From positions 12,130 through 76,129 of the forward strand of contig CACYYS010000001.1 in the NCBI GenBank assembly GCA_902778725.1: a DNA stretch of 64,000 nucleotides. Reading direction: 5' to 3'. How positions within the stretch are numbered: the stretch's first letter is position 1; every line of letters begins with the position of its first letter. The DNA is from an uncultured Ruminococcus sp. (lineage in GTDB: Bacteria > Bacillota > Clostridia > Oscillospirales > CAG-272). The notes beneath the pieces are model-generated. The model searched no databases, had not been told where the DNA came from, and saw only the letters and a program-made list of their open reading frames with translations. Shown here one piece after another: positions 25,781 through 45,750 of this stretch. A program made the position numbers and the translations under genes.

Positions 25781-26008
25781 CTACTTTTCTGAAGAAAAGT
25801 AGGCAAAAGACTTCCTTTTCTGAAGAAAAGGAAGCAAAAGACTTTTTGAAGGGACAGGGAGCAGAAGGGAGTGCGAACACAGACGCTCCTTTCCCAAAAG
25901 CCGCCCATAAGGATGGGCGGCTTTTTCGTTTCGCTCGGGGGAGCGTGTTCATTTCCTCCCTCGGATCAAAAAACGCCCGATACGGCCCGGGCGTTTTTTG
26001 GGTTGAGC
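25781..26008 (+). repeat. Modular hairpin intergenic repeat, copy A (forward arm)
   Basis: CTACTTTTCtgaaGAAAAGTAG, CTTCCTTTTCtgaaGAAAAGGAAG, AAAAGCCGCCCataaggatGGGCGGCTTTTT and AAAAAACGCCCgatacggcccGGGCGTTTTTT modules. Near-identical to 29150-29345. Confidence 0.85.
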
Positions 26009-26336
26009 GACCCGCTGCGGATGGAGTCCTGTCTGCCTCCCTCCCGAGGGCCCGAATCCCCAAAAGGTCCTCCGGACCTTTCCGGGGACCCCGACGGGCC
26101 GGGGGACCGCTTGCGGTGGAAGGAGTTTTTCCTCTCTGTCGTTTCTCCTGTGTTTCTCCCTCCTTCCCTAACTCCTTCAGTCGCCTACGGCGACAGCTCC
26201 CTCAAGAGGGAGCCTTCTCCCGCTCCTTTTCTCTTTGTAGGTCGGGAACCGCCGCTTGCCTCCGGCGAGCGGCATCGAATACCGCCGCGTGGCGAAGACG
26301 CGCGGCATAAAAAATCCCCCGCCGTTTTGTCAAAAC

Positions 26337-26455
26337 AAAAAGCCGCCCCATCCTTACCGGGGCGGCTTTTGGGGGAGGAGCGTCTGTGTTCGCGCTTTCT
26401 CTGCTCCCTGCCCCTTCAAAAAGTCTTTTGCCTACTTTTCTTCAGAAAAGTAGGT
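26337..26455 (-). repeat. Modular hairpin intergenic repeat, copy A' (inverted arm)
   Basis: Reverse complement of the 25781-25925 modules (AAAAGCCGCCCC...GGGGCGGCTTTTGG...CCCCTTCAAAAAGTCTTTTGCCTACTTTTCTTCAGAAAAGTAG). Confidence 0.85.
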
Positions 26456-26532
26456 CTTTCCTTTTTCTTAACCTTTTTCCTGCTTGTTTCTTTCGTGAAA
26501 AAAGAGTACAATAAAGAAAAAAGGAGGCGGAC

Positions 26533-27237
26533 ATGGCAAACATTCTGATCTGTGACGACGAGCCCTCGATCGTCAAGGCGCTGCGCATTTATCTTTCTTC
26601 CGAGGGGTATCGCCTCTTTGAGGCGCCGGACGGCAAAAAAGCGCTGGAGATCCTGCGGCGGGAGGAGATCCATCTTGTGCTGCTGGACATCATGATGCCG
26701 GAGATGGACGGGATCTCGGCGCTTGCGGCTCTGCGCGAGGAGAGCAACGTACCGGTGATCCTGCTGACCGCCAAGAGCGAGGACGCGGACGTGATCCTCG
26801 GGCTGACCGTCGGCGCCGACGACTACGTCACCAAACCCTTCAACCCGGCGGAGCTGATCGCGCGGGTGCGCTCCTGTCTGCGCCGCTATCTGCAGCTTGG
26901 CGGCGGCGGGGAGCGGGAGGGGGTGCTTTCCTGCGGCGGGCTGGAGCTGGACGACCGCTCCAAGCGCGTCACGCTGGACGGGACGCAGCTCTCTCTCACG
27001 CCGACCGAGTACGGGATCCTGAAGCTCCTTCTGGAGCATCCGGGGCGGGTCTTCTCCCCGGAGGAGATCTACCGCCGCGTCTGGGGCGGCGACCCGCTCG
27101 GCGGGGAAAAGACCGTTGCCGTCCATATCCGCAATCTCCGTACCAAGATCGAGATCGACCCCTCCCGGCCCCGGATGCTGAAGGTCGTTTGGGGGCAGGG
27201 CTACAAAATGGAAAAGGAGCCTACCCATGGATCGTGA
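26533..27237 (+). CDS. OmpR-family response regulator
   Basis: MANILICDDEPSIVKAL...LVLLDIMMPEMDG receiver domain plus a winged-helix C-terminus (LTPTEYGILKLLLEHPGRVFS...VWGQGY). AAGGAGG RBS. Confidence 0.9.
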   Translation: MANILICDDEPSIVKALRIYLSSEGYRLFEAPDGKKALEILRREEIHLVLLDIMMPEMDGISALAALREESNVPVILLTAKSEDADVILGLTVGADDYVTKPFNPAELIARVRSCLRRYLQLGGGGEREGVLSCGGLELDDRSKRVTLDGTQLSLTPTEYGILKLLLEHPGRVFSPEEIYRRVWGGDPLGGEKTVAVHIRNLRTKIEIDPSRPRMLKVVWGQGYKMEKEPTHGS

Positions 27238-29128
27238 CCAAGCAAAAAAAGAAAGGAAAGGATATCCCTTTTTCCTCAAAGCCGCGGCGTTTTTCTTTGC
27301 GCTGCTCTTTCTCTTCACCGCGGCGCTCTCAGCGCTGGCCGCCGCCTTCTGCTTTGCGGCGGACCTGTACGGCGAGCCGTCCGCCGACGCGGCGGAGGAG
27401 AAGCTCCTCGCCGAGCTCGGAGAGCGGGACCTCAACCGTGCGATCGAAAACTATCTTGCGGCGTACGGGGCTTCCTCGGTGATGGCTGCCGACGCCCGCA
27501 TCAATCCCCGGCCGGGCAGCCGCCTCGCCTACGCCGTGACCGACGTCCACGGCGGCGTCCTCTCCGGCGACCTGGAGGGGAGGGAAGGGACGGAGCTCGC
27601 CCGCCGGAGCTTCTACGTTACGCTCCCGCGGGGTGCGATGCAGACGCGCTGGATGGTCCTCTTCCTTTTGGACGGACCTGCGATGCTCGATCCGTACGCC
27701 GTGTTCGGCTTCGGCGTGCGCGCGGCGTATACCCTCCGCTACGCCGTCTACGCGATCTTCCTCCTCTCCCTCCTCTTCGCCGTCCTCCTGCATCTCTTCC
27801 TTTTGCGGGCGGCGGGCAGGAGACGTGCGGGTGGGGAGCCGCAGACCGGCTTCTGGCAGCGGATCCCTTTCGATCTCCTCACCGCTGTTGCCGTCCTCGC
27901 CGTTCTTTTTGTTCTCTACGGCGCCTCCCGCCTCCCGCGAAACGCTGAGGCGATCCCCTTCCCGCTCCTGCTTGCGCTCCCGGCCGTGCTTTTCCTCTTT
28001 TTCGCCGCGCTGTGGCTTTTGTGGACGGTCGACCTCGCCCTGCGGATCAAAACGCACACCCTCCTCGCCCGCACGCTCCTTTATCTGATCTTTGTGCGGG
28101 GGATCTGGGGCGGCCTGCACGCGATCGCTCTTGTGCCGCGCACCGTCCTTCTCTTTCTCCTCTTTTCCGCGGCGGAGCTCGTTCTGGTGTGGAAGGAGTT
28201 TTCCTACCGCTCCTACGTCCTGCCCGCGTGGTTTTTCCTGCATTTGATCGCCTTTCTGTATATCCTCTGGTGGGCCGTCTCGATGAAAAAACTGAAACAG
28301 AGCGGGGAGGCGCTCGCCTCGGGCGATCTCTCCTACCGTACGGCCGTTTCCCGGATGCCGCGGGATCTCGCCCGCCACGGAGAAAAGCTCAACAGCATCT
28401 CCGCCGGCGTCGCGGACGCGGTGGAGCGGCAGTTAAAAAGCGAGAGGATGAAGACCGAGCTGATCACCAACGTCTCCCACGATCTGAAAACGCCGCTCAC
28501 CTCCCTCGTCTCCTACGCAGACCTGATCGCCGCCGAACCGACCGAAAATCCGAAGATCACCGAATACGCCGGGGAACTGACCCGTCAGTCCGCCCGGATG
28601 AAAAAACTGATCGAGGATCTCGTCGAGGCGTCAAAGGCGTCCTCCGGCAATCTGGAGGTCGTCCTCGCGCCGACCGACCTGTCCGTCCTGATCGCGCAGA
28701 GCGCCGCCGAGTACGAGGAGCGCTTTGCCGCGCGGGGGCTCTCCCTCCTGGTGCGGGAGCCGGAGGAGCCGCTCTCCGTCCTCGCGGACGGACGGCGCCT
28801 GTGGCGCGTCTTTGACAACCTCCTCGGCAACGCCGCCAAGCACGCGGCGCCGGACTCCCGCGTCTACCTCGACGTGAAGAGAGAGGAGAACTACGCCGTC
28901 CTCACCTTCAAGAACGTCTCGGAGGCGCCGCTGAATATCCCCGCCGAGGAGCTGACCGAACGCTTTGTGCGCGGGGACAGCGCCCGCTCCGGCGAGGGCA
29001 GCGGCCTCGGACTCGCGATCGCCAAAAGCCTCACCGAACTGCAGAACGGCTTTTTCCGCGTCGAGATCGACGGGGACCTCTTCAAAGCCGTCGTCTCCCT
29101 CCCCCTCGCTCTCTACTTTTCTGAATAA
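27227..29128 (+). CDS. Sensor histidine kinase with a multi-TM N-terminal region
   Basis: H-box ELITNVSHDLKTPLTSL, N box DNLLGNAAKHA, G box GSGLGLAIAKSL. Overlaps the regulator gene by 11 nt. Confidence 0.9.
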   Translation: MDRDQAKKERKGYPFFLKAAAFFFALLFLFTAALSALAAAFCFAADLYGEPSADAAEEKLLAELGERDLNRAIENYLAAYGASSVMAADARINPRPGSRLAYAVTDVHGGVLSGDLEGREGTELARRSFYVTLPRGAMQTRWMVLFLLDGPAMLDPYAVFGFGVRAAYTLRYAVYAIFLLSLLFAVLLHLFLLRAAGRRRAGGEPQTGFWQRIPFDLLTAVAVLAVLFVLYGASRLPRNAEAIPFPLLLALPAVLFLFFAALWLLWTVDLALRIKTHTLLARTLLYLIFVRGIWGGLHAIALVPRTVLLFLLFSAAELVLVWKEFSYRSYVLPAWFFLHLIAFLYILWWAVSMKKLKQSGEALASGDLSYRTAVSRMPRDLARHGEKLNSISAGVADAVERQLKSERMKTELITNVSHDLKTPLTSLVSYADLIAAEPTENPKITEYAGELTRQSARMKKLIEDLVEASKASSGNLEVVLAPTDLSVLIAQSAAEYEERFAARGLSLLVREPEEPLSVLADGRRLWRVFDNLLGNAAKHAAPDSRVYLDVKREENYAVLTFKNVSEAPLNIPAEELTERFVRGDSARSGEGSGLGLAIAKSLTELQNGFFRVEIDGDLFKAVVSLPLALYFSE

Positions 29129-29466
29129 AAGCCGTACTTTTCTGAAGACTTCCTTTTCTGAAGAAAAGGAAGCAAAAGACTTTTTGAAGGGGCAGGGAGC
29201 AGAGGGAGCGCGAACACAGACGCTCCTTCCCCAAAAGCCGGGCGATACGGATGCCCGGCTTTTTCCTTTCGCTCGGGTAAGCGCGTTCATATCCTCCCTC
29301 GGGTCAAAAAACGCCCGATACGGCCAGGGCGTTTTTCGGTTTGAGAGTTTTTGCGTAGGCGGCGGGAGATGTTCGATGCCTCTCGCCGCGCGGCGAAGAC
29401 GCGCGCATAAATAATCTCCCGCCGTTTTGTCAAAACAAAAAGCCGCCCATCCTTATGGGCGGCTTT
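29113..29466 (+). repeat. Modular hairpin intergenic repeat, copy B
   Basis: Same module order as copy A, plus the GGCGAAGACGCGCGCATAAATAATCTCCCGCCGTTTTGTCAAAACAAAAAGCCGCCC module also found at 26290-26350. Its first hairpin overlaps the kinase stop codon (29126-29128). Confidence 0.85.
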
Positions 29467-29517
29467 TGCTTAGATCCACCGGGAAAAAGGCGGGGAAGCG
29501 GTCTTCTGTGAGGGACT

Positions 29518-30684
29518 CTAACGGGGAGCTGCCGCGTCGAGCGAATCGCGGAGGCGGGAGAAGAGAAGAGAGCTTTTCTCGCCGGCGGCTTTTTCTGCGG
29601 CGGCTTGGCAGGATCGGCGAAGAGAGGAAAGCTCCTGCTCCCGGAGCTTCCGGTCCCGGGAGGCGGCCCGCGTTAAAACGGAAAGATAGGAGAGGCGCAG
29701 CTCCGGGGAGGGCTCTTTTGCGATCCCTTTTTCGGCAAGTTCCTCAAAGAGAGAAGCAAGGACGGGGGAAAGATCCTCGCGCTCCCAAAGCGCCTGCAAG
29801 CCGTTGAAGTAGGTTTTGACGGCGTTAAACCCCGCCAGATCGCCTCCGTAAGCCATAAGATCGCCGAAAAGCGGATAGTCGAGACAGGTGAGCAGGAGCT
29901 CTTTGGTGGAGAGGCGCGGGAGGACGTCCTCGGGGATCCGGCAGGCAAGCTCGATCTCGCCGTGATCCAGCTGCTTCCAGCGCTCCGGCGTTTTTTGCGG
30001 AGTGACCGGGTACTCGTACCGGCCGTCCGCGGCGCTGTGCGCGAGCGGAGAGACTGCGGTTTTATCCGGCGCGGAGAGCCGTTGAACGAGAGAGAAAAAA
30101 GCAACGGCGTCGTTATGGCTCGCCCGGCTGTCGGCTGCGAGCGCGCGGCAGGAGGAGAGGATTGAAGCAAGGTCGGCGTCGGTGATCTTTCCGTCTTCGG
30201 CCGCCGAGCAGACCAGCGCGGAGAGAAAGCGCGGATACAGTTCTCTCAGACTTTCCTCCTCCGGGCGTTTTTCGGAGAAGAAGTCGGCAAAAAAATCAGC
30301 GAGAGCAGGAGAAAGATCCTCGCGCTCCCAAAGCGCCTGCAAGCCGTTGAAGTAGGTTTTGACGGCGTCAAACCCCGCCAGATCGCCTCCGTAAGCCATA
30401 AGATCGCCGAAAAGCGGATAGTCAAGACAAGTGAGCAGGAGCTCTTTGGTGGAGAGGCGCGGGAGGACGTCCTCGGGGATCTGATTGGCGAGCTCGATCT
30501 CGCCGTGATCCAGCTGCTTCCAGCGCTCCGGCGTCTTTTGCGGAGTGACCGGGTACTCGTATCGGCCGCTCGCAGAAGAAACATCTTTCCGCCCGAGAGA
30601 AAAGGCGCCGACGGCGAGCCCTATGGGGATCAAAAGATCAAAGACGAGGATCAAACAAAAAAGGCGGTTTGTTTTCTCTTTCAC
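29518..30684 (-). CDS. Membrane-anchored protein with an internally duplicated ~88-aa module, function unknown
   Basis: GTG start at 30684. N-terminal TM LFCLILVFDLLIPIGLAVGAF. GRYEYPVTPQKTPERWKQLDHGEIEL...LQALWEREDLSP occurs twice (aa 40-127 and 221-308). Confidence 0.7.
   Translation of the reverse strand: MKEKTNRLFCLILVFDLLIPIGLAVGAFSLGRKDVSSASGRYEYPVTPQKTPERWKQLDHGEIELANQIPEDVLPRLSTKELLLTCLDYPLFGDLMAYGGDLAGFDAVKTYFNGLQALWEREDLSPALADFFADFFSEKRPEEESLRELYPRFLSALVCSAAEDGKITDADLASILSSCRALAADSRASHNDAVAFFSLVQRLSAPDKTAVSPLAHSAADGRYEYPVTPQKTPERWKQLDHGEIELACRIPEDVLPRLSTKELLLTCLDYPLFGDLMAYGGDLAGFNAVKTYFNGLQALWEREDLSPVLASLFEELAEKGIAKEPSPELRLSYLSVLTRAASRDRKLREQELSSLRRSCQAAAEKAAGEKSSLLFSRLRDSLDAAAPR
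29761..30567 (-). repeat. Intragenic direct repeat, two ~264-bp near-identical copies with a 543-bp period
   Basis: 29761-30024 versus 30304-30567. For example CGCCGTGATCCAGCTGCTTCCAGCGCTCCGGCG is present at 29958 and at 30501. Confidence 0.85.
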
Positions 30685-30867
30685 GGCGCGGCTCCTTTCC
30701 GTTTTTGCTTGTTTACAGATCCAGCATAGCAGAAAAAATCGGGTTTTGCAAGTTTCGGGAGAAATCTTTTGTTTTTCTTAAACTTTCTTTAAATAGTTTC
30801 CTGTTTTTTTTTGCTTTCTCCCGCTTGCCACGGAAAAAACGCGATGCTGAGACGCTGCGGGCCGGGG

Positions 30868-30934
30868 GGAGGATATGAACACGCTCCCCCGAGCGAAAGG
30901 AAAAAGCCGCCCAAGCGTACCGGGCGGCTTTTTT
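30868..30934 (-). repeat. Modular hairpin repeat, partial copy C (left flank of the low-GC island)
   Basis: GGAGGATATGAACACGCTCCCCCGAGCGAAAGGAAAAAGCCGCCCAAGCGTACCGGGCGGCTTTT. Near-identical to 33839-33903. Confidence 0.85.
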
Positions 30935-30990
30935 GCAATGGATAGTGCGTTCGCAGCAAGACAAACAGAAGAAGAAAAAGAGAAAGCGAG

Positions 30991-32124
30991 TTACTGGTTA
31001 TTTCCTTTTGATTCATAATACTTAATCGCGGTTTTGGTTTTCCTTATTTTGGCTATCATGATTGATATGATGGTTGCTGAAACTATAATTCCAAAAATGG
31101 CGAGTAATAAAAACCAATTTTCGAGAGATTTTGTTTCTATATACGCGCCGAGAAGGATAACGGACAAATACATAAGGAATAAACCGCCGGCAAGGCCCCA
31201 TTTTAAATTGGTTTTCTTTGTTTTTAGATTGTTGATTGTTTGCTTGGAAATTATGGCTTCTTCAGAATCATAAAAATCTTTTATAGTTGCGTTTTCAGTT
31301 TTCAGAAGCGGTGCCAGCAGTTTTTTATCGTTTTCCCAAATGGAAGAATTGTCAAAGTTACCAAAGTATCGGAATTTAAAAAACTCGATAAAGGAAGCAA
31401 AAAAACTCTCCGGAGCTTCGTGATAGCTCGTTATTTGCAAGGCAGAGAAGCGATCTATCACTTTATCAGCGAGAAATCGGATCGCCCCTTGCATATTCGC
31501 GTTTGCAGTAGACAGTTCCGTTTTTGACTGGATGGAATACCCGATCGAATCCAATATGCTGTTGCTATATTCTATATTCTGCTGCAACTGAGTTTTTTCC
31601 AAATCGGTCACTTTCTCTATGCGTGCCTGGTAGTTTTCCTGAAGCATATCGCGAATCTTTGAAAAAGCCTCTGCGGAGAATGCAAAGAATTCTGCAGTCT
31701 CTCCTGCCTGCTCGTGCATTGCTTTGAAAGCGTCATCAAAGTATACTATGGTATTATCCAGCGGTTTTCGAGTTGAATCTTTTTGTTTTCCAAGAGACAG
31801 ACCGGCGTAAAGCAGAGCCTTGCTGTTTTGCGGGTCGGCATTCAGAATATCAACAAAAATATCGTATGCTTTCTCTCCGTCTCCGCGTTCGTAAAGCCTT
31901 TTTGCATTAGCGAATTTGTTGTCAATTTCACTCAAATGATCGATTTTTACCGGTCCTTTTATTTCCCCATCCCAAAGCAAAAGATTTTTCGCTTCTTCAG
32001 TGGAATACTTTGTTCCGCAGAAGTCGCATATAAAAAAACCGTTCTCCTTTGTTAAAGAAGAATTACCGCACATTTCGCACTTCAAGGAACCATTGTTTTC
32101 TCCTTCTTTGTTGAAAAAACTCAC
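30991..32124 (-). CDS. Zinc-ribbon / TPR-like / C-terminal 2-TM protein (377 aa), function unknown
   Basis: LKCEMCGNSS...FICDFCGTKY ribbon. AKRLYERGDGEKAYDIFVDILNADPQNSKALLYAGLSL is TPR-like. C-terminal TMs WGLAGGLFLMYLSVILLGAYI and WFLLLAIFGIIVSATIISIMIA. Sampled line is 37% GC. GTG start with no clear RBS. Confidence 0.65.
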   Translation of the reverse strand: MSFFNKEGENNGSLKCEMCGNSSLTKENGFFICDFCGTKYSTEEAKNLLLWDGEIKGPVKIDHLSEIDNKFANAKRLYERGDGEKAYDIFVDILNADPQNSKALLYAGLSLGKQKDSTRKPLDNTIVYFDDAFKAMHEQAGETAEFFAFSAEAFSKIRDMLQENYQARIEKVTDLEKTQLQQNIEYSNSILDSIGYSIQSKTELSTANANMQGAIRFLADKVIDRFSALQITSYHEAPESFFASFIEFFKFRYFGNFDNSSIWENDKKLLAPLLKTENATIKDFYDSEEAIISKQTINNLKTKKTNLKWGLAGGLFLMYLSVILLGAYIETKSLENWFLLLAIFGIIVSATIISIMIAKIRKTKTAIKYYESKGNNQ

Positions 32125-32142
32125 TTTTTTACAAGATAAGAT

Positions 32143-33255
32143 TCATTCGCCCTTAATTTCGTCCAAAAGTTTCCCGATTTTGATTTTTCCCGAATAAGCA
32201 AGCGCGTTTCTGCAATCGTCAAGTCGGTATTTTTCACCGGAGTAATAATCATCCGGTTTGATATAGACCCAGCATTCGTCTTTCCAGATTTCGGAATGGA
32301 CTTCTTCCAGCTTTTCGCATCTTAAATACAGGTTTTTATCGACGCAGACCCATGCGACCGTTTTTGGGTTTTCCCCTTTTGTCCCGATGAATAGCAAGAC
32401 GTGATTGCCCGCTTTTTGTATCACCTCTTGCTCCGGGGTATCAACGAAGATGTATTTGCTTGTGTCAAAATCCAAAAAACGCCGCAAATATGCTTTTTGG
32501 ATGGCTTTTTGGATACTTCCGTTCTTGTCTCCGTTCAGATCCAGCAAGGAGACCAGCGCGCACAGATTATCTGTTACGGCAAAGGTTTTATCCAAGCCAA
32601 TGGCTTCCATGACGGCTTTCTCTTCTTTGCTCGTTTTGCACATTTCGTTCAGCACCTCCTGATATTGCTCGAGGATTCTTTTAAGACCGGGGTCGATATG
32701 TTCGAGCTCGGCTACTTTTTTCAGCCAAAGGGAAATGTGTTTTTCGAAGGAAAGAAGGACAATACACTTTTTATCAAGTCGATTGCCAACGCTTTGCAGA
32801 GAAGGCATCCAGCCAGTCGGGGTGAGGTAGTAAATCTTTTTGTCGGTATACTTTTTTGTTTCAAAGTAATAATGGTAATAGTCCGCTAATTGGACGTTTT
32901 GATCGCCGGCCCATATTTTTACTTCAATGGGATAAACGTGTTCGTCGTTGCGGATTACAATATCAACACGTCGATTGTCTGTTATCACCTCTTCCAAAGT
33001 TACCGTGGCGGTCGGGGAAGGGGATGTATCAAGCCCCAGAACATACCAAAAGAACAGGCAAAGGGGAGCAAGTCCGAGTCCGTGTTTTCCGTTTGGAGAG
33101 AGAAGTGAGGCGATAAAACGGCAGGTGTGCACTTCTTTCCATTCTATTTGTAGCGCCTGAAAGATGTTGTAAGAGGAAGCGCTTTTTTGCGGTGTTTTCG
33201 TCAGCCTTTGTGTGACGGAAATATCATACAGAAGCGACTTTATTTTGTTTAGCAT
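32143..33255 (-). CDS. PD-(D/E)xK nuclease superfamily protein (PDDEXK_4-like), 370 aa
   Basis: YNIFQALQIEWKEVHTCRFIASLLSPNGKHGLG and RRVDIVIRNDEHVYPIEVKIWAGDQ (D...E-x-K core). The ATG at 33255 is preferred because the upstream ATG at 33330 lies inside the -10 box of the predicted promoter. Confidence 0.7.
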   Translation of the reverse strand: MLNKIKSLLYDISVTQRLTKTPQKSASSYNIFQALQIEWKEVHTCRFIASLLSPNGKHGLGLAPLCLFFWYVLGLDTSPSPTATVTLEEVITDNRRVDIVIRNDEHVYPIEVKIWAGDQNVQLADYYHYYFETKKYTDKKIYYLTPTGWMPSLQSVGNRLDKKCIVLLSFEKHISLWLKKVAELEHIDPGLKRILEQYQEVLNEMCKTSKEEKAVMEAIGLDKTFAVTDNLCALVSLLDLNGDKNGSIQKAIQKAYLRRFLDFDTSKYIFVDTPEQEVIQKAGNHVLLFIGTKGENPKTVAWVCVDKNLYLRCEKLEEVHSEIWKDECWVYIKPDDYYSGEKYRLDDCRNALAYSGKIKIGKLLDEIKGE

Positions 33256-33328
33256 ATCCTGCTTTTCTCCGCATTTGTTTTTTTGTCTGCAGATTGCGGT
33301 TTTGTTGTGTTCAAATGAGATCTTTTTC

Positions 33329-33357
33329 ATTATATCTGTATTACAGATAAAAGTCAA
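33329..33357 (-). promoter_or_regulatory. Promoter of the nuclease operon with an embedded palindromic operator
   Basis: Minus strand reads TTGACT (33352-33357), 17 nt, TATAAT (33329-33334). The spacer contains the palindrome TATCTGTAtTACAGATA (33333-33349). A third half-site TACAGATAT is at 33367-33375. Confidence 0.6.
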
Positions 33358-33406
33358 TATCTTTTTTACAGATATTCTAAAATAAAACAAAAAGGAGGCG
33401 AGGTAT

Positions 33407-33622
33407 ATGGTTTTCAAAAATCTCCGGGCGATCCGGGAGGATCGCGACCTCCGGCAGGCGGATCTGGCAAAGGTGCTGAACGTCTCGCAGAACACCTATT
33501 CGCAATATGAAAACGGTGTGATCTCGCTGACGGCGGAAACGTTGATCAAGCTTGCTCGGTTTTACGGGGTCAGCGTGGATTATCTGCTCGATCAGACGTC
33601 GGATCCGACCCCCTATCGCTGA
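33407..33622 (+). CDS. XRE-family HTH transcriptional regulator (71 aa)
   Basis: LRQADLAKVLNVSQNTYSQYENGVISLTAETLIKLARFYGVSVDYLL. AAGGAGG RBS. Divergent from the nuclease gene. Confidence 0.9.
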   Translation: MVFKNLRAIREDRDLRQADLAKVLNVSQNTYSQYENGVISLTAETLIKLARFYGVSVDYLLDQTSDPTPYR

Positions 33623-33689
33623 AAGCCGGCCTGTACGCGGGTCGGCTTTTTCTTTTAAAAAAAACGGCAGGAGCAAGTTCAATGTCGCA

Positions 33690-33987
33690 CATCGGATGCG
33701 GCGGGAGGTAAACCCCCGCCCTACAGCAGATCGGACGGAAAAGGCTTTCCTCTCGGGGGAGGCTGACAGGACTCCTTCCGCCGAGGGGCGCTCAAACCGA
33801 AAAACGCCCTGGCCGTATCGGGCGTTTTTCGACCCTCGGGAGGATATGAACACGCTCCCCCGAGCGAAAGGAAAAAGCCGCCCATCCGTACCGGGCGGCT
33901 TTTGGGGGAGGAGCTTCTTTGAATGCGCTTTTTCTTTTCCCTGCCCCTTCAAAAAGTCTTTTGCTTCCTTTTCTTCAGAAAAGGAAG
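33690..33987 (-). repeat. Modular hairpin intergenic repeat, copy D (right flank of the low-GC island)
   Basis: Reverse-orientation copy of the copy A/B modules. The last hairpin CTTCCTTTTCttcaGAAAAGGAAG (33964-33987) abuts the pyrR stop codon. Confidence 0.85.
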
Positions 33988-34536
33988 TCATTCCAGGATC
34001 GAGACTTTTTCCTCGCCGTCGCGTTCGGCGAGGCGGACGGAGATCTGTTCGCTGTGGCGGGTGGGGACGTTTTTGCCGACGTAATCGGGGCGGATGGGCA
34101 GTTCCCGGAGTCCGCGGTCGATGAGGACGGCGAGCTGGACGGAGTCGGGTCTCCCCTTATCAAAGAGCGCGTCGATGGCGGCGCGGGCGGTCCGGCCGGT
34201 ATAGATGACGTCGTCGACGAGGACGACGTGGAGCCCGTCGGGGGAGAAGGGGAGGTCGGTGCCGGATAGGGTAGGCTGAGGGGAGCGTCTGGAGAGGTCG
34301 TCCCGGTAGAAGGTGATGTCGAGGGTGCCGAAGAGGGGGCGGACGCCCTCGATGGCTTCCACGCGGTCGCAGATGCGGCGGGCGAGGTCGGCGCCCCGGC
34401 GCTGGATGCCGACGACGGCGACGCGGTCGACCCCTTTGTTGCGCTCGAGGATCTCGTGGGAGATACGGGTGACGGAGCGGCCGATGGCGGCCTCGTCCAT
34501 GATCACGGCTTTTTCTCTGCGGTTGTTTTGCTGCAT
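33988..34536 (-). CDS. pyrR: Bifunctional pyr operon regulator / uracil phosphoribosyltransferase PyrR
   Basis: ORF trimmed to the ATG at 34536 (MQQNNRREKAVIMDEAAI). ISHEILERNKG...VVGIQRRGADLA...LDITFYRDD...VVLVDDVIYTGRTARAA (PRPP motif). Confidence 0.9.
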   Translation of the reverse strand: MQQNNRREKAVIMDEAAIGRSVTRISHEILERNKGVDRVAVVGIQRRGADLARRICDRVEAIEGVRPLFGTLDITFYRDDLSRRSPQPTLSGTDLPFSPDGLHVVLVDDVIYTGRTARAAIDALFDKGRPDSVQLAVLIDRGLRELPIRPDYVGKNVPTRHSEQISVRLAERDGEEKVSILE

Positions 34537-34547
34537 GGCGCGTCCTC

Positions 34548-35189
34548 TCAGGCGTTTTCCCCGTCCGGCTCCCGGCGGTTTGCGATCATCACGCCGGCGT
34601 AGGGGAGGGTGAGGATCCAGTCGCAGAAGATGTGCCACTCGGGGAGCTTGTGGGCGCGGCGGGCGTAATAGATATTGGAGAGATTTTCGTAATTGAGGGT
34701 GACGGTGCGGAGCTGGTTGAAGCTGGAGGGCAGGAGCTGGATCAGCTCGTGCCAGAGGGCGCGGTCCTTCGTCTCGTTATATTTCTGCCGGACCTCCTCG
34801 AGATAGGCGAGGAGCGAGTCGAGCTGCGCGAGGCCGGCGGGGGAGAGCCGGTCGCAGGAGAACATCTCACGGGAGAAGGGGTAGGACTGGATCTTGTGCA
34901 TGGTGCTGGTGGAGTTGGCGACGGTGCCGACCTTGTAGGTATCGAACTCCTTCCACCAGTAGAGGGGCGCGGTGATATCGACGGAGACGAAGATCTGGCG
35001 GATGAATTTGCGATGGTCGGTGCCGGCGGAGCAGAGGCGGGCGGCGAGGGAGAGATCGTTTTCTCCGAGGACGTACTCGCCTTTTTCATTGTAGGCGCTG
35101 TCGCTTTTTGCCCAGGAGTTGAGGGGATTGCGCGCGCCGCGCATCGCGTTCTCAAGGTTCATCACGGAGGTGCGTTCGATCAGGATCAT
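34548..35189 (-). CDS. ThyX-fold (flavin-dependent thymidylate synthase-like) protein lacking the RHR / SxRY motifs
   Basis: DHRKFIRQIFVSVDITAPLYWWKEFDTYKVGTVANSTSTMH aligns by eye with ThyX [39 protein letters not shown]. RHR is replaced by TYK and S-x-RY by S-T-MH. ATGA overlap with the AraC stop. Confidence 0.55.
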   Translation of the reverse strand: MILIERTSVMNLENAMRGARNPLNSWAKSDSAYNEKGEYVLGENDLSLAARLCSAGTDHRKFIRQIFVSVDITAPLYWWKEFDTYKVGTVANSTSTMHKIQSYPFSREMFSCDRLSPAGLAQLDSLLAYLEEVRQKYNETKDRALWHELIQLLPSSFNQLRTVTLNYENLSNIYYARRAHKLPEWHIFCDWILTLPYAGVMIANRREPDGENA

Positions 35190-36028: not shown

Positions 36029-36145
36029 AGTCACCTCGTGAAAACCGTCGATTTTTACAATCGCATCATCATTTATTACATTGTAAACCATTTTGCGCCG
36101 GATTACAATAGGATTGCTAAATTTTCCTTTCAGGAGGTATATGCT

Positions 36146-37540: not shown

Positions 37541-37561
37541 CAAATAGAAAAGGAGAAAAAA

Positions 37562-38986: not shown

Positions 38987-38998
38987 GGAGGAACGAGA

Positions 38999-40090: not shown

Positions 40091-40914
40091 GTCTGAGAGA
40101 GATCCTTTGCGAAGCGGAAAAGGGCGGCTACGCCGTCCCCGCCTTCAACGTCTATAATATGGAAACGGTCATGGGGGTCCTGCACGCCGCGGAGGCGGCC
40201 CGCTCCCCCGTGATCATGCAGATCTATTCCCGTCTCTTCGATTCGGAGAACGGGAAATTCGCGGGCGCGAACATCCTCGCCGCCGCAAAGTACGCGACCG
40301 TCCCCGTCGCCTTCCACCTCGACCACGGCGCCACCGAGGCGCAGGTCATCGGCGCGCTGGACGCCGGCGCGACCGGCATCATGATCGACGCGTCCAAACT
40401 GGAGTTTGACGACAACGTCGCTGTGACGCGAAAGATCGTCGCGCGCTGCAAGGCGGCGGGCGATATCGCCGTCGAGGGGGAGCTCGGCCACGTCGGGACC
40501 ACCAAGGAGGAGATCGGCGACAACTATACCGAGCCGGAGGCCGCCCGCCGCTTTGTGGAAAAGACGGGGGTCGAAGCGCTCGCCGTCGCCGTCGGAACGG
40601 CGCACGGCCGGTACAAAAAGGCGCCCAAGCTGGCGATCGAGCGGACCCGCGAGATCAAAAAAGCGGCCGGCGTCCCGCTTGTGCTGCACGGCGGCAGCGG
40701 CGTGCCGGACGAGGAGATCCGCGCCGCGATCGGAGCGGGGATCCGGAAGGTGAACTTCTCCACCGACCTCTGCTACTCCTTCCTCGATACCGTCTTTGCG
40801 ACCAGCCGCGAGTGGGTCGGCATCGACCTCTTCATGCGGGACGCCGTCAAGGCGGTCGAGGATTTTGCGCTCTCGAAGATCGCGGTTCTCGGCTCCGCCG
40901 GACAGGCAAAATAA
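40081..40914 (+). CDS. Class II ketose-bisphosphate aldolase family protein (IolJ/GatY-like)
   Basis: ORF trimmed to the ATG at 40081 (MLVSLREILCEAEKGGYAVPAFNVYN). LDHG, GELGHVG, VGTAHG and VLHGGSG motifs. Confidence 0.85.
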   Translation: MLVSLREILCEAEKGGYAVPAFNVYNMETVMGVLHAAEAARSPVIMQIYSRLFDSENGKFAGANILAAAKYATVPVAFHLDHGATEAQVIGALDAGATGIMIDASKLEFDDNVAVTRKIVARCKAAGDIAVEGELGHVGTTKEEIGDNYTEPEAARRFVEKTGVEALAVAVGTAHGRYKKAPKLAIERTREIKKAAGVPLVLHGGSGVPDEEIRAAIGAGIRKVNFSTDLCYSFLDTVFATSREWVGIDLFMRDAVKAVEDFALSKIAVLGSAGQAK

Positions 40915-40924
40915 GGAGAGGGAT

Positions 40925-41833
40925 ATGGCAAGGATCGTCGGCATCGGCGCAAACGTACACGACACCCTGATCACCCTGCCCGCCTACCCCGCGGAGGATA
41001 CCAAGCTCCGCGCGGAGAGGAGCATGGAGGTCGGGGGCGGCCCCTGCGGCACCGCGCTCGTCGCGGCGGCCAAGCTCGGCGCGGACTGCGCCAGGCTCGG
41101 GCAGCTCGCGCTCGACCGGGGCGGGGATTTTCTCGCCGCGGATATGGCGCGCTGGGGCGTGGACGTCTCCCTGGCAAAGAGGAGGGAAGGGACCTCCTTC
41201 TCCTCCTGGATCTGGCTCTCGGCGGCGTCGGCGACGCGCACCTGCGTCTTTGACCGCGGCACCCTCCCGCCGCTCATCCTCGACCCCGCGCAGAAGGAGG
41301 CGATCGCCTCGGCGGATCTCCTGCTGCTCGACGGCAACGAGATGGCGGCGGCGATCGAGGGGGCGAAGATCGCCCGGGAAAACGGCGTCAAGGTCCTGCT
41401 CGACGCGGGCGGCCGCTACGCGGGGATCGAAGAGCTGCTCCCGCTCGTCGACCTTCTGATCCCGAGCGAGGAGTTCGCCCTCGGGATCACGGGGAAAACC
41501 TCGGTGCGCGAGGCGGCGAGTGAGCTTCTTCGCCGTTTTGCGCCCGAGACGCTCGTGATCACCTGCGGCAAGGAGGGCGGCGTCATCCTCGATAAAAAGG
41601 GATACCGCTCCTACCGGGCGTACAAGGTCAAGGCGGCGGATACCAACGGCGCGGGCGACGTTTTCCACGGCGCGTACGCCTACGCCTTTACCGCGGGCAG
41701 AGGAGGAGCGGACGAGTGCGCCGCCTTCGCCTCCGCCTGCTCGGCTCTCAAATGCACCGGCGCGGGCGGCGCCCGGCAAAGCACGCCGACCCTGCCCGAG
41801 CTGGAAAAATTTATCAAGGAGAATGAAAGATGA
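40925..41833 (+). CDS. PfkB-family carbohydrate kinase (IolC-like)
   Basis: ORF trimmed to the ATG at 40925 (MARIVGIG) after AAGGAGAGGG. DTNGAGDVFHGAY motif. Confidence 0.85.
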   Translation: MARIVGIGANVHDTLITLPAYPAEDTKLRAERSMEVGGGPCGTALVAAAKLGADCARLGQLALDRGGDFLAADMARWGVDVSLAKRREGTSFSSWIWLSAASATRTCVFDRGTLPPLILDPAQKEAIASADLLLLDGNEMAAAIEGAKIARENGVKVLLDAGGRYAGIEELLPLVDLLIPSEEFALGITGKTSVREAASELLRRFAPETLVITCGKEGGVILDKKGYRSYRAYKVKAADTNGAGDVFHGAYAYAFTAGRGGADECAAFASACSALKCTGAGGARQSTPTLPELEKFIKENER

Positions 41834-42618
41834 AACTCAAAAAGCACTGGAACGGTCAGTACGGCAAGTCCGCGTTCATCAAAAACGGCACCCTCGGCAT
41901 GATCGAGCTGGATATGCTCAAGCTCCGCGAGGGCGAGCAGAAGCATTATTATGAAACGGATAACAAGGAGTACGGTCTGATCATCCTCGGCGGCAAATGC
42001 TCGGTCGTCGGAGAGGGATTCGCCTTTGAGCATATCGGCAAGCGGAAAAACGTCTTCGACGGGCCCGCCGCCTCCGTCTATCTGCCGAGAAACTGCGACT
42101 TCACCGTGACGGCGGAGGAGGGCGAGGTCGAGATCGCCGTCGCCAAATGCCCGGCGGAAAAGGATTTCCCGCCCAAACTCGTCAACCCCGAGGACGTCAT
42201 CATCAAGCACCTCGGCAAGGACGGCTGGAAGAGGGAAGCGCACTTCAACATCGACGAACGGCTCGACGCCAACCTGATCTATATCGGAGAGGCGTGGACC
42301 GAGGGCGGGATGTGGTCCTCCTATCCGCCGCATAAGCACGACGACAACAATATGCCGGAGGAGTCCTTCATGGAGGAGCTGTACTTCTACCGCTTCGACA
42401 AGCCCACCGGCTTCGGCATCCAGCGCGTCTACACCAAGGAGGGGGACATCGACGAGACCTACACCGTCAAAAACGACGACGCCGTCGAGATCCCGCGCGG
42501 TTATCACCCCTGCACCTGCGCGCCGGGCTATAAGCTCTACTACCTCTGGATCATGGCGGGCAAGATCCGCGGCTTCAACATGACCACGGACGAAGACCAC
42601 AAGTGGCTGAACAAGTAA
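41830..42618 (+). CDS. 5-deoxy-glucuronate isomerase (IolB) family cupin
   Basis: GMWSSYPPHKHDDNNMPEESFMEELYFYRF...GYHPCTCAPGYKLYYLWIMAG. ATGA overlap with the kinase gene. Confidence 0.75.
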   Translation: MKLKKHWNGQYGKSAFIKNGTLGMIELDMLKLREGEQKHYYETDNKEYGLIILGGKCSVVGEGFAFEHIGKRKNVFDGPAASVYLPRNCDFTVTAEEGEVEIAVAKCPAEKDFPPKLVNPEDVIIKHLGKDGWKREAHFNIDERLDANLIYIGEAWTEGGMWSSYPPHKHDDNNMPEESFMEELYFYRFDKPTGFGIQRVYTKEGDIDETYTVKNDDAVEIPRGYHPCTCAPGYKLYYLWIMAGKIRGFNMTTDEDHKWLNK

Positions 42619-42637
42619 AAGACGAAAGGGCGTTTCG

Positions 42638-44116
42638 ATGAAATACCTTCTCGGCGTTGACTTCGGCGGCGGGTCGTCGAAGGCGACGCTTCTCGCGGAG
42701 GACGGGACGGTCGCGGCGGAGAACGCCGTCGAGTATCCGACCCGCTACCCCGCTCCCGGACAGGTGGAGCAGGACCCGGACGACTGGTACGCCGCCACGG
42801 CGGAGAACGTCCGCGCCCTCATGGAGAAGAGCGGCGTCTCCCCCTCGGAGATCGCCGCGCTCTCCCTCGACGCCGCCACCCATACCGCCGTGCTCTGCGG
42901 GGAGGACTGCCGTCCCCTCCGCCCGGCGATCTATTGGACGGACACCCGCTCCGCGCCGATCGCGGCGCGCCTGCGGGAGGAGTGCGGCGAGCGGATCTTC
43001 TCCCTCGCGCTCTCCCGTCCCGATCCGATCTGGACCCTCCCGCAGCTGATCTGGGTGCGGGAGAACGAGCCGGAGATCTTTTCCGGGATCCGGCACATCT
43101 TCTTTGCAAAGGACTACGTCCGCCACCGCATCACGGGCGACTTTCTTACCGACAGCATCGAGGCGCAGGGCTCCATGCTCTGGGATAACGGCGCCGGCCG
43201 CTGGTCGGAGTTCCTCTGCTCGCTCGCCGGCGTCCCGGCGGCGGTCCTGCCGCGCGTCGTCCGTCCGACCGATCTTGCCGGGACCGTCACGGCGGAGGCG
43301 GCGCGGGAGCTGGGTCTTCCGCAGGGGCTCCCCGTCCTTGCCGGGATGACCGACACGGCGGCGGAGGTCTTTGCTTCCGGCGCCGTCGAACGCGGGAATA
43401 TGACGGTCAAGCTGGCGACCGCCGGCCGGATCTGCGTCATCACCGACCGCGCTTATCCCTCCGATTACCTCATCAACTACTCGCATATCTCCGACGGGCT
43501 CTGGTATCCCGGCACGGCGACCAAGGCATGCGCCTCCTCGCTTCGCTGGTTCCGCGATACCTTCGGGGACGGGACGGACTACCCGGCGCTCGACCGCCTT
43601 GCGGCGGAGACCCCTGCCGGAGCGGACGGTCTGCTCTATCACCCCTATCTCAACGGCGAGCTCACCCCCTACGCCGACCCGCAGCTCTGCGCCTCTTTCA
43701 CCGGCTTCCGCGCCGGGCACACGAAGGGGCACTTTGTGCGCGCGGTGATGGAGGGCGTGGCGCTCTCGCTCCTCGACTGTCTCCGGGCGCTCGACTCCCT
43801 CGGTCTGCCGCGGGACGGCAGGGCCGCCCTGATCGGCGGCGGGGCAAAGAGCCCCCTCTGGCGGCAGATCGTCGCCGACGCGCTCGGGATGGAGCTGGAG
43901 GTCCGCCGCTCAAGCGACTCCTCCCTCGGCTCCGCGATGCTCGCGGGCGTCGCCGCCGGGGTCTGGAACACGCCCGCGGACGCGGCGCGCGCCTGCTCCG
44001 TTACCGTCGCGGCCGCCTCCCCGGATCCCGCCCGCACCGAGCTTTACGCAAGCCTCTTTGAAAAGTATAAGGTCATCCACGACGCGCTCGCGCCCGTTTA
44101 CCGCGGCGCAAGATAA
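42638..44116 (+). CDS. FGGY-family sugar kinase (xylulokinase-like)
   Basis: MKYLLGVDFGGGSSKATL...QDPDDWY...HPYLNGELTPY...GGGAKSPLWRQIVADALG. Confidence 0.85.
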   Translation: MKYLLGVDFGGGSSKATLLAEDGTVAAENAVEYPTRYPAPGQVEQDPDDWYAATAENVRALMEKSGVSPSEIAALSLDAATHTAVLCGEDCRPLRPAIYWTDTRSAPIAARLREECGERIFSLALSRPDPIWTLPQLIWVRENEPEIFSGIRHIFFAKDYVRHRITGDFLTDSIEAQGSMLWDNGAGRWSEFLCSLAGVPAAVLPRVVRPTDLAGTVTAEAARELGLPQGLPVLAGMTDTAAEVFASGAVERGNMTVKLATAGRICVITDRAYPSDYLINYSHISDGLWYPGTATKACASSLRWFRDTFGDGTDYPALDRLAAETPAGADGLLYHPYLNGELTPYADPQLCASFTGFRAGHTKGHFVRAVMEGVALSLLDCLRALDSLGLPRDGRAALIGGGAKSPLWRQIVADALGMELEVRRSSDSSLGSAMLAGVAAGVWNTPADAARACSVTVAAASPDPARTELYASLFEKYKVIHDALAPVYRGAR

Positions 44117-44125
44117 GGAGACGGA

Positions 44126-45493
44126 ATGAAAAAACGGAAGGTCCTCGTCCTTGTCAAGCCGGTCGGCGGAGAGATCACACCCTTTGACGGGGCGGCTCTG
44201 GAAGCCGCCCTTTCCCTTGAGGGGGCGGAGGTCACCGTCCTCTCGATGGCGCCTCCCGCCTCCCGTGACGCGCTTACCGCGCTCACCCGCCTCGGCGATC
44301 TGCGCGTGATCCTCCTCTCCGACCCTCTCTACGCCGGCTCGGACACGCTGGCGACCGCGCGGATCCTCTGCGCGGCGCTCGACCGGATCCCCCATGATCT
44401 GATCTTCTGCGGCCGCCAGTCCACCGACGGGGATACCGCCCAGGTCGGTCCCTGCCTCGCCGCGCTCCGCGGCGTCCCGGCTCTGACCAACGCGATGGAG
44501 ACGCCCGTCCTCACCGGAAAAACGGTCTCGGTCCGCACCCGCTTCGGCAGGGAGAAGGCGCCTTTGCCCGCTCTCCTGACCTTCGAGCGGTTCACGGTGC
44601 TCCGCGCTCCCTCCATCTTCTCCCGCGCGCGGGAGATCGAGCTCTGGGACAACAAAACGGTCGGCGCGGATCCCGCCCTCTGCGGGCTGGAGGGCTCTCC
44701 CACCCGCGTCCTCGAGGCAAAGGAAAACGAGGGAGGAAGACGCTCCTGCCGCTTCATCGCCCCGGAGGAGCTGCCCGCTCTCCTCAAAGAGCTTTCGGGG
44801 AGAGGGGCAAAAGAGGAGATCTGGCCCGAGGCGGAGCGCAAGCTCCCCCATATCGCCGTGGTCGGCGAGCGGCCGTACCGCCGCGCCGCCGCCGTCGCGG
44901 AGCGTGTTTCGGTGATCCGGGAGACGGAGCCCGAGGCGATTTTGCGGGAGGTGGAGCGCCTCGCTCCCTCCGCCGTCCTCTTTCCCGCCGATCTCTGGGG
45001 CAGGCGCACCGCGCCCGCTCTGCAGGCGCGCCTCGGCTGCGGCCTCTGCGCCGACTGCACCGACCTGAAAACCGACGGCAGGACTCTCTTCCTTTACCGC
45101 CCTGCCCGCTCCGGCAACGTGATCGCAAAGATCGTCTCCGCCGGGCTCCCGCTCGCTACCGTCCGCTGCCCGGAGGCCTCCGGCGACCTGATCGTCGCCG
45201 CCGGCCGGGGTGTTTCCGGGGAGCTTGACCGCGTCCAGGCCTTTTCCGACTCGCTCGGCGCCGAGCTCTGCTGCTCCCGCCCCCTCGTCGACGACGGGCT
45301 CCTTCCTTACGAGCGGCAGGTCGGGCTCACCGGCCGCACCGTTACCCCCTCCGTTTACCTCGCCATCGGGATCTCCGGCGCCGTCCGCCATACCTGCGCG
45401 ATCGAGAACGCGGGAACGGTCGTCGCCTGGAACCCCGACCGCTCCGCCCGCATCTTCGACTGCGCCGACTACGGGATCGCCGCGCCGTTTTGA
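44126..45493 (+). CDS. Fused electron-transfer flavoprotein: EtfB-like N-half plus EtfA-like C-half in one 455-aa polypeptide
   Basis: N-half VLVKPV...AALEAAL...LLSDPLYAGSDTLATARIL...CGRQSTDGDTAQVGPCLA is EtfB-like. C-terminus QVGLTGRTVTPSVYLAIGISGAVRHTCAIENAGTVVAWNPDRSARIFDCADYGI is the EtfA FAD-domain signature. Confidence 0.75.
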   Translation: MKKRKVLVLVKPVGGEITPFDGAALEAALSLEGAEVTVLSMAPPASRDALTALTRLGDLRVILLSDPLYAGSDTLATARILCAALDRIPHDLIFCGRQSTDGDTAQVGPCLAALRGVPALTNAMETPVLTGKTVSVRTRFGREKAPLPALLTFERFTVLRAPSIFSRAREIELWDNKTVGADPALCGLEGSPTRVLEAKENEGGRRSCRFIAPEELPALLKELSGRGAKEEIWPEAERKLPHIAVVGERPYRRAAAVAERVSVIRETEPEAILREVERLAPSAVLFPADLWGRRTAPALQARLGCGLCADCTDLKTDGRTLFLYRPARSGNVIAKIVSAGLPLATVRCPEASGDLIVAAGRGVSGELDRVQAFSDSLGAELCCSRPLVDDGLLPYERQVGLTGRTVTPSVYLAIGISGAVRHTCAIENAGTVVAWNPDRSARIFDCADYGIAAPF

Positions 45494-45509
45494 AGGAAAC
45501 GGGGGAACG

Positions 45510-45750
45510 CCTTCTTTTCTGAAGAAAAGCAGGCACCTGCTTTTCTAAAGAAAAGTAGGCAAAAGACTTTTTGAAAAGGAAGACAGAGAGCGAACAAACA
45601 GAACAGAGGCCAAAACGCCGGTCGGTAAGTCTGACCGGCGTTTTGTTATGGCAAAAGTCAAAACCCGCAAAGAGAAGGCGTCTCAAACGCGCCGATCCGC
45701 CGCCCCGCGAAAGGAAAAGCCGGCCCGCTTGTGCGGGTCGGCTTTTTTTC
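45510..45750 (+). repeat. Modular hairpin intergenic repeat, diverged copy E
   Basis: CTTCTTTTCTGAAGAAAAGCAGG, GCTTTTCTAAAGAAAAGTAGGCAAAAGACTTTTTGAA, AAAACGCCGGTCggtaagtctGACCGGCGTTTT and AAAGCCGGCCCGCttgtGCGGGTCGGCTTTTTTT. The last hairpin serves as a bidirectional terminator. Confidence 0.75.

Follow-up and report, generated by a model that had tools for sequence, protein, structure and literature searches.

A 64-kb stretch of DNA (the window) from an uncultured Ruminococcus sp., contig CACYYS010000001.1, carries five full copies (A, B, C, E and F) and two partial copies of a family of intergenic repeats between 25.7 and 45.8 kb, at an overall identity of 84-97%. The family is real, uncatalogued and lineage-specific, its polarity is unusually strict, and it is restricted to one genus-level clade of high-GC rumen Clostridia. 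The copies are probably best described as lineage-restricted, non-coding mosaic intergenic repeats, in which a polar terminator cassette at the 3' ends of genes is reshaped by recombination. We infer from its predicted hairpins that the cassette likely supplies the transcription terminators of the upstream genes.

Each unit of the family is polar. The head consists, in order, of an A-rich flank, one to four tandem hairpins (H1), a linker, a hairpin T1 and often a P box with a further hairpin T2, and the head is followed by a varying set of further small palindromic modules. H1 (24 nt) has the form NNNN-CTTTTC-TGAA-GAAAAG-NNNN with co-varying outer stems (CCTA/TAGG, CTTC/GAAG, CCTT/AAGG and CCTG/CAGG), and the units within an array are direct tandem repeats. 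The exact core of H1 occurred 140 times in 431 kb of related contigs, which were retrieved by matching the element and whose loci carry L numbers below. Between the H1 array and T1 stands CAAAAGACTTTTTGAA and then a linker of ~45 nt (~60 nt when CAAAAGACTTTTTGAA is counted as its start), which falls into subfamilies that differ by indels and shows no conserved structure. T1 is a GC-rich hairpin that carries both an A-tract and a T-tract. The P box has the form TTTCGCTCGGG..GTTCATATCCTCCC, and both P and T2 are present in the window's subfamily. In the 5' flank of 76 copies, positions -12 to -3 were 43-53% A compared with a background of 19%, followed by G and C. AAAAG/CTTTT motifs are numerous across the unit.

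Self-comparison of the window showed that A (25780-26010, +) is 87% identical to C (29112-29345, +) over 234 nt, 86-87% identical to E over 209-242 nt and 86% identical to B (26469-26333, -) over 143 nt. The identity of C to E (33989-33791, -) was 89% over 199 nt, that of D (30862-30934, -) to E was 97% over 66 nt, and F (45510-45645, +) was 67-80% identical to the other copies. The 17-mer GCAAAAGACTTTTTGAA was found five times in the window, compared with 0.00 expected from 100 shuffles, and a profile built from 69 copies had zero matches elsewhere in the window (1-25 kb and 46-64 kb). All window copies are intergenic and at most overlap one stop codon. The six intervals listed in an earlier, sequence-only reading of this DNA are all family sequence and contain every module string quoted there. 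However, the near-identity over about 200 bp claimed for A and B is in reality 86-89%. The statement that the family occupies most long intergenic regions was likewise too strong, since it is carried by ~5-6 of ~14 gaps longer than 200 nt, approximate counts from a crude gene map based on GC content at third codon positions. The copies and modules, with coordinates from a regular-expression map of the window, are as follows.

25767-25779, plus strand: 5' flank of copy A, rich in A, from the stop of the ABC-ATPase gene to the first hairpin
25780-25834, plus strand: H1 array of copy A, tandem hairpins CCTACTTTTCtgaaGAAAAGTAGG (25780-25803) and CTTCCTTTTCtgaaGAAAAGGAAG (25811-25834), both predicted hairpins
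25835-25895, plus strand: linker of copy A (beta subfamily), opening with CAAAAGACTTTTTGAA
25896-25926, strandless: T1 of copy A, a GC-rich hairpin between A- and T-tracts, resembling a bidirectional intrinsic terminator
25929-25999, plus strand: P box (25929-25964) and terminator-like hairpin T2 (25968-25999) of copy A
26001-26336, plus strand: module nest between A and B, every part of which recurs in related loci
26337-26454, minus strand: copy B, inverted relative to A, with T1 26337-26370, linker 26366-26430 and H1 26431-26454
29112-29172, plus strand: H1 array of copy C, with a degenerate hairpin (29112-29135), a partial unit and an intact hairpin (29149-29172)
29173-29336, plus strand: linker (29173-29233), T1 (29233-29264), P (29267-29303) and T2 (29306-29336) of copy C
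29337-29468, plus strand: tail of copy C, with a GGCGAAGACGCGCG module (29392-29424) and a terminal T1-type hairpin (29437-29467)
30862-30934, minus strand: partial copy D, consisting only of T1 (30901-30934) and P (30862-30898), 57 nt 3' of a 377-aa gene of the AT-rich islet described below
33699-33987, minus strand: copy E, directly behind the pyrR stop, with H1 33964-33987, linker 33899-33963 and T1 33872-33903
33833-33869, 33800-33829 and 33749-33799, minus strand: P, T2 and tail of copy E
33699-33725, minus strand: half module TGTAGGGCGGGGGTTTACCTCCCGCCG of copy E
45510-45645, plus strand: copy F (gamma subfamily), with hairpins 45510-45533 and 45536-45559, then the linker
45611-45645, plus strand: terminator hairpin CAAAACGCCGGTCGG..CCGGCGTTTTG of copy F
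45700-45749, minus strand: partial T1+P-like copy directly behind the stop of the convergent ABC-transporter gene (45751-47670, minus strand)

The position of the copies relative to genes is strict. A same-strand open reading frame (ORF) of at least 150 codons ended between -31 and +45 nt from the first hairpin in 57 of 70 copies, compared with 9.9% at random positions (p ~7e-45), and the genes upstream of these stop-proximal copies comprised 45 distinct genes. In the window, the ABC ATPase stop (25764-25766) precedes a first hairpin that starts at 25780, the kinase stop (29126-29128) lies inside the degenerate hairpin 29112-29135, and the pyrR stop (33988-33990) adjoins the hairpin 33964-33987. 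The Etf-alpha stop (45491-45493) is followed 16 nt on by the first hairpin of copy F, from 45510. These coordinates agree with the earlier placing of hairpins near the same four stops, one of them over the kinase stop codon. Approximately 13 upstream ORFs end within the H1 array itself, by way of the loop TGA or a stem TAG.

The copies that are not behind a gene are mostly secondary units of tandem arrays. At their junctions, H1 is joined to the left arm of the preceding T1 or T2 (AAAAGCCGCC or AAAAACGCC directly before H1). Copy B is the sole full window copy not behind a gene; it is antisense to its neighbours, and its H1 adjoins the promoter region of a response-regulator operon. Together, A and B form a head-outward inverted pair, in which 35 nt of B are 100% complementary to A. 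Likewise, inverted pairs were found between convergent genes in L027, L031 and L049. This inverted pairing occurs only between whole cassettes, 0.25-0.8 kb apart.

Features of an intrinsic terminator, taken as a perfect stem of at least 6 bp followed by at least 5 T in the next 8 nt, were present in the GC-rich T1 of 54 of the 69 copies. T1 had a median folding energy of -21 kcal/mol, and its spacing from the last H1 was constant at ~70 nt. A terminator consensus scan also matched modules. The earlier suggestion that the repeats supply terminators is borne out at the level of these features, while the terminating activity is predicted from sequence. Furthermore, the copies folded more stably than shuffled sequences, with z = -6.8 and -7.2 for the two strands. 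The variable outer positions of H1 were Watson-Crick paired in 87% of cases compared with 65% after shuffling, and RNAalifold identified six pairs with double-sided changes, in H1 and T1.

The possibility was considered that the hairpins belong to a structured RNA. Sense and antisense strands were equal in stability (34 of 69 copies, p = 0.93), and neither a G-U over A-C bias nor an excess of sense-strand stability was found in the copies. Chimeric and imperfect hairpins and a few flipped loops occur. Rfam had no match at the gathering score over the whole window, and at E <= 1 the region 25.7-34.1 kb returned terminator-like noise only, the best at 32 bits against a threshold of 60. The comparison with Rfam and the covariance analysis that had been proposed as checks gave no known family and co-varying stems. 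The equal folding of the strands, the divergent linker, the chimeric hairpins and the lack of an Rfam match together point to DNA-level palindromes or a symmetric function. A strand-specific structured RNA was rejected because both strands fold equally well.

Two ordinary terminators of the window that do not belong to the family, 5789-5824 and 33621-33651, share the form AAAGCCG..CGGCTTTT. The first, AAAAAAGCCG..CGGCTTTT, is common to convergent genes, and the second begins inside the stop codon of an XRE gene. This form is probably the generic terminator style of the clade and possibly a target of the repeats.

Comparison of orthologous sites showed rapid turnover: the head is kept while the hairpin number, subfamily and tail modules differ between flanks that are 94-98% identical. 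Behind pyrR stands a single hairpin in the window but a row of three in L031 (flanks 98.5% identical), L034 and L039 have unlike linker subfamilies (flanks 97% identical), and the tail modules are wholly different in L005 and L014 and in L011 and L017 (flanks 94-95% identical). Additionally, L060 is 243 nt longer than L062, an indel polymorphism. The junctions lie at AAAAG/CTTTT-type microhomologies, and their pattern fits unequal crossing-over, deletion and gene conversion. An all-versus-all locus comparison within the clade revealed no head-less orthologous site, the only polymorphism being in tail modules and extra units. Outgroup orthologous sites are without the H1-linker-T1 head.

The copies also mark the borders of inserted DNA. 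The synteny between the window and L031 (98.5% identical) stops at the H1 of copy E, next to an AT-rich islet at ~30935-33690 with 39-50% GC, compared with ~63%. The islet is flanked by direct repeats of T1+P, 66 nt long and 97% identical, at 30867-30932 (D) and 33838-33903 (E). No integrase was seen in the islet, which contains the following genes.

30991-32124, minus strand: zinc-ribbon/transmembrane gene
32143-33495, minus strand: PDDEXK_4 nuclease gene, assigned by PADLOC to candidate defence family PDC-S26 (E = 6e-47)
33407-33622, plus strand: XRE helix-turn-helix gene

In an independent case, L050 has ~270 nt more than L063, and this segment is likewise bracketed by duplicated T1+P. The proposal that the repeats may act as a hotspot of recombination or insertion is supported by the synteny break at a copy and by the two T1+P-bracketed insertions. 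Between copies C and D lies a 388-aa ORF (29518-30684, minus strand) that had no Pfam match and a weak PADLOC match to PDC-S48 (E = 4e-7). This ORF contains an internal direct repeat of 286 nt (29745-30030 and 30288-30573, 93% identical), which looks like a recent domain duplication.

The tails and the gaps between copies are themselves built of repeats. The sequence-only reading had recognised the ends of the A-B gap as copies, and family sequence is indeed present there, but the whole gap (25765-26469) is repeat-derived, with a depth of at least 3 throughout among related loci. Its nest includes a tail common to A and E and a GGCGAAGACGCGCG..CCCGCCG module at 26291-26324. It also includes a unit of ~190 nt (26035-26225) bounded by terminal inverted repeats (TIRs), with arms GCCTCCCTC/GCCTCCCTCnnnnGAGGGAGG..hairpin..GGAAGGAGT, which holds a nested 50-nt hairpin insert, CCCGAATCCCCAAAAGGTCCTCCGGACC.., at 26051-26100. 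The nested combination was also found in L004, L031 and L049, indicating that several small repeat families insert into one another. Moreover, the partial copies at 45700-45749 and 30862-30934 consist of T1+P alone, so modules can exist without the head. The H1 arrangement of copy C is identical in the near-identical relative L029, and orthologues of copy F are present in L007, L021, L025 and L068.

Other modules were observed in the related loci. The module CGGCAGGAGCAAGCCCCTGCCCTACA..loop..TGTAGGGCGGGGGTTTATCTCCCGCCG has one orientation relative to the head in L003, L005, L010, L012 and L017 and the opposite one, loop included, in L004, L007, L015 and L020 (just 3' of T1), with a half copy in the window at 33699-33725. 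It is either an independently inserting small palindromic element or an invertible segment. In a 'delta' subfamily (L009 6510-6900, L030 and L057), a unit of ~110 nt, GGCAAAAGACTTTTTGAAAnCGGG..GCGAACAC.., is tandemly repeated two to three times behind a single H1. A different array consists of four to five mini-hairpins, all with unlike stems (5-8 bp) and 3-nt loops, separated by a conserved 7-mer spacer (ATTTCAT, ATATCAC or GCATCAT), a design of conserved spacer and variable palindrome. It was seen in L005 (minus strand, ~30-150), L011 (minus strand, ~5990-6120), L012, L003, L010 and L050 (3480-3600) and is absent from L063 and from the window.

The distribution of the family was determined with the 26-mer GAAAAGNNNGCAAAAGACTTTTTGAA. 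In a scan of 185,579 species, with one genome per species, it was present in two genomes, at 21 loci, many of them at contig ends. Both are metagenome-assembled genomes (MAGs) of uncultured Clostridia, one from goat rumen. The 26-mer was also found in 41 metagenomic contigs from two datasets and had zero matches in viral contigs. An nhmmer search of the 431 kb identified 86 full and 35 head-only copies. Confinement to the window had been named as the outcome that would speak against a dispersed family; the set collected from related genomes contains 78 copies, which stand behind 45 different genes. The contigs L022, L025, L029 and L031 are 96-100% identical to the window, which shows that the window's species has been sampled elsewhere, and the two MAGs are ~90% identical to it across shared genes. 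Related MAG contigs often end inside copies, and the one contig retrieved with the window's own Etf-alpha protein, of 7.4 kb, stops within copy F.

Among Etf-alpha homologues, identity drops from 98% and 87% directly to 64% or less. In the relatives at 62-64%, GC is 50-53%, 13-21 kb of sequence contain no copy of the element, and a plain terminator stands 8 nt behind the stop. This gap in identity and the element-free relatives, taken with the 26-mer scans, confine the family to the one genus-level clade. Moreover, a plasmid collection gave no match and a phage collection one irrelevant 47-nt match, and a full-text literature search found no paper with the core sequences or the MAG identifiers. 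The first description of a dispersed, modular, palindrome-rich intergenic family absent from the searched catalogues holds.

In architecture the family belongs with the intergenic mosaic repeats (BIME/REP, NIME and BOX) and is not a new kind of system. In E. coli and other Proteobacteria, BIME/REP elements (PU) and REPINs have proposed roles in termination and mRNA 3'-end stabilisation and are sites of insertion and rearrangement. The present family resembles them in its short imperfect palindromes, extragenic position at gene 3' ends, mosaics with other motifs and many copies, and H1 is a 20-40-nt extragenic palindrome in many copies. However, there is no sequence similarity, and the hairpin core is AT-rich rather than GC-rich. 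The hairpins are direct tandem repeats, whereas REPs alternate in orientation. The GTAG/CTAC-type tetranucleotide that serves as the RAYT cleavage signal of REPs is not conserved, the outer stem varying among CTAC, TTCC, CTTC and CTGC, and the cassette, unlike BIME/REP, always points the same way with respect to the gene in front of it.

Compared with miniature inverted-repeat transposable elements (MITEs), a single cassette has no TIRs, its ends being H1 on one side and either T1/T2 or a variable tail on the other, although the nested unit 26035-26225 does have them and pairs of the A-B type look TIR-bounded. No consistent target-site duplication was found at the 5' junctions, and on the 3' side the unit varies so much that it has no definable end. 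The 66-nt duplications of T1+P are not target-site duplications of the transposase type. The label REP/BIME- or MITE-like given in the sequence-only reading thus fits the hairpin palindromes, but membership in either class is not supported: the variable tetranucleotide and the direct hairpins differ from REP/BIME, and single copies lack the TIRs of a MITE.

Pneumococcal BOX elements (boxA-boxB(n)-boxC) share with the family a modular order, an internal tandem module of variable number, an intergenic location, strong folding and a host among the Firmicutes. The sequences are unrelated, however, and the variable-number module is here gene-proximal and itself a hairpin. Canonical terminators are present here, while adjacency to stop codons and polarity do not define BOX. 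Intergenic mosaic repeats of the BIME/REP, NIME and BOX kinds are reviewed in PMC3184786, and PMC3898611 also deals with NIME and Correia elements. Like the family, NIME (dRS3/RS) and Correia elements form mosaic arrays of small repeat families and hot spots of rearrangement and foreign-DNA integration, and some act as terminators. They differ in their unrelated sequence and in the dRS3-like bounding 20-mers, which this family lacks; Correia elements also have clear TIRs and a TA duplication, neither of which is present here. The MIRUs of Mycobacterium are reportedly intercistronic tandem units that are oriented with transcription, touch or overlap stop codons and vary in copy number between strains. 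The likeness extends to stop-codon contact, orientation with the flanking genes and copy-number variation. MIRUs, however, do not consist of hairpins with terminators behind them; they are direct repeats that lie within operons and contain small ORFs, and they are unrelated in sequence and phylum.

If the repeats are such a recombining 3'-end cassette, T1 and T2 would end the upstream transcript and, being symmetric by virtue of the A-tract, would also halt incoming convergent transcription. The A-rich flank lies 5' of H1, so that the opposite strand reads a hairpin followed by a T-tract; H1 with its flank may therefore act as an antisense back-stop and, on the sense strand, as 3'-untranslated region (3'-UTR) hairpins. 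The present diversity would have arisen mostly by recombination between copies: AAAAG/CTTTT and AAAAGCCG/AAAAACGCC microhomologies would be the sites of unequal crossing-over and deletion, and gene conversion would swap subfamilies. The original dispersal was probably aimed at the A-tract/GC 'shoulder' of pre-existing terminators, as suggested by the A-tract-G-C flank, the secondary junctions in terminator arms and the terminator at 5789-5824. Such targeting would explain why copies begin just behind stop codons. Once in place, copies would serve as sites of recombination and of insertion for other DNA, and small palindromic MITE-like modules would accumulate behind the head.

Several points weigh against this explanation. 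The roles proposed in termination and in the 3'-UTR are deduced from the nucleotide sequence only. Recombination accounts for the turnover of copies but not for their first spread to at least 45 unrelated genes, and no mobilising enzyme, single-copy TIRs or clear target-site duplication were found in the clade loci. Targeting of a symmetric terminator does not fully account for the sense polarity, which needs selection or a directional mechanism. Furthermore, the element itself may include the A-rich flank, which would then not belong to the target. Finally, the loci were fetched by a match to the element, so the counts are biased towards occupied sites.

An active non-autonomous transposon of the MITE, REPIN or PATE type is a possible, if unlikely, alternative. 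It would be mobilised in trans by a dedicated enzyme, for example a RAYT/IS200-IS605-like HUH enzyme acting on H1 or a DDE enzyme, and aimed at terminator stems. The high similarity of paralogous copies and their subfamily structure would be expected of such an element. Hairpin ends are typical of single-strand transposition substrates, and the secondary copies sit inside the left arms of T1 and T2. The head-outward pairs such as A-B, with complementary arms of 35-140 nt, resemble a TIR-bounded element, and the frequent breakage of related MAG contigs at copies is expected with many near-identical repeats. However, the 5' junction has neither a conserved tetra- or pentanucleotide target nor a consistent target-site duplication, the ends of a single copy are dissimilar, and every junction seen can be explained by microhomology. 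Orthologous positions are kept between species, which indicates that most copies are old. Moreover, tblastn gave no significant match to a Y1/RAYT- or IS200-like gene in ~0.5 Mb of clade sequence, a weak test given the approximate queries (IS200 TnpA and E. coli RAYT).

A bolder reading, which we regard as quite unlikely, holds that the head is a mobile '3'-end cassette' of an undescribed type, aimed at the terminator shoulder by hairpin-recognising machinery that is neither RAYT nor DDE. It would install a standard gene end, comprising stops in two to three frames, tandem hairpins and a bidirectional terminator, on dozens to hundreds of genes and be kept uniform by gene conversion, with T1+P acting as a landing pad for defence islets.

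It is distinctly improbable that the copies are selected 3'-UTR RNA elements whose UGAA-loop H1 arrays bind an RNA-binding protein or RNase, or stabilise the transcript, and so define a post-transcriptional regulon. The strict sense orientation between stop and terminator means that H1 and the linker would be transcribed, the CUUUUC-UGAA-GAAAAG core is invariant between co-varying outer stems, and orthologous sites are conserved across species. These properties are opposed by the strand-symmetric folding with its missing G-U bias, the indels and lack of conserved structure in the linker subfamilies, the chimeric, imperfect and loop-flipped hairpins, the antisense position of copy B and the absence of a matching Rfam family. 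In addition, selection alone cannot yield homologous 150-nt sequences behind 45 unrelated genes.

The possibility was also considered that H1 arrays are duplex-DNA sites (TTTTC-N4-GAAAA) for a lineage-specific nucleoid or regulatory protein that organises or insulates domains at gene ends. The invariant 16-nt near-palindrome in arrays of one to four, the strand symmetry and the AAAAG/CTTTT motifs throughout the unit are in its favour. However, the co-variation of the outer stems argues for intrastrand pairing over fixed duplex recognition, and we know of no candidate protein, which also counts against this very improbable reading. That the repeats are coding, as small ORFs or shared C-terminal extensions, is hardly credible: one frame is open for ~65 codons through C and E and the ~13 upstream ORFs end inside the H1 array, but long open frames are frequent by chance at 63% GC, the indels between copies are not multiples of three, and the GTAGG hairpin variant closes the frame in what is a chain of terminator-like hairpins.

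Three known kinds of site were also tried as identities for parts of the family. A CodY box (consensus AATTTTCWGAAAATT) was rejected for TTTTC..GAAAA on half-site spacing. A PyrR attenuator was rejected for copy E, which lies downstream of pyrR between convergent genes, and the Rfam PyrR-binding-site family had no match adjoining pyrR. Integron attC sites were rejected because the genes in front of the copies have housekeeping functions, occur on both strands and keep their synteny; inspection of the modules showed no GTTRRRY box, and no integrase was present among the 10 neighbouring ORFs scanned.

The family has practical consequences for the genomes that carry it. It fragments MAG assemblies, and it affects gene calling in approximately 13 copies, where the upstream ORF reads into the array and its stop lies in the repeat. 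Its copies mark synteny breaks and foreign DNA, including the candidate defence gene (PDC-S26). They also offer a convenient sequence signature by which this little-known clade of uncultured, high-GC Clostridia from the rumen can be recognised. Furthermore, the family is a compact natural case of duplication and homogenisation of terminators and 3'-end hairpins genome-wide. Should there be an enzyme dedicated to mobilising the family, its strict positioning behind stop codons would represent an unusual choice of target.

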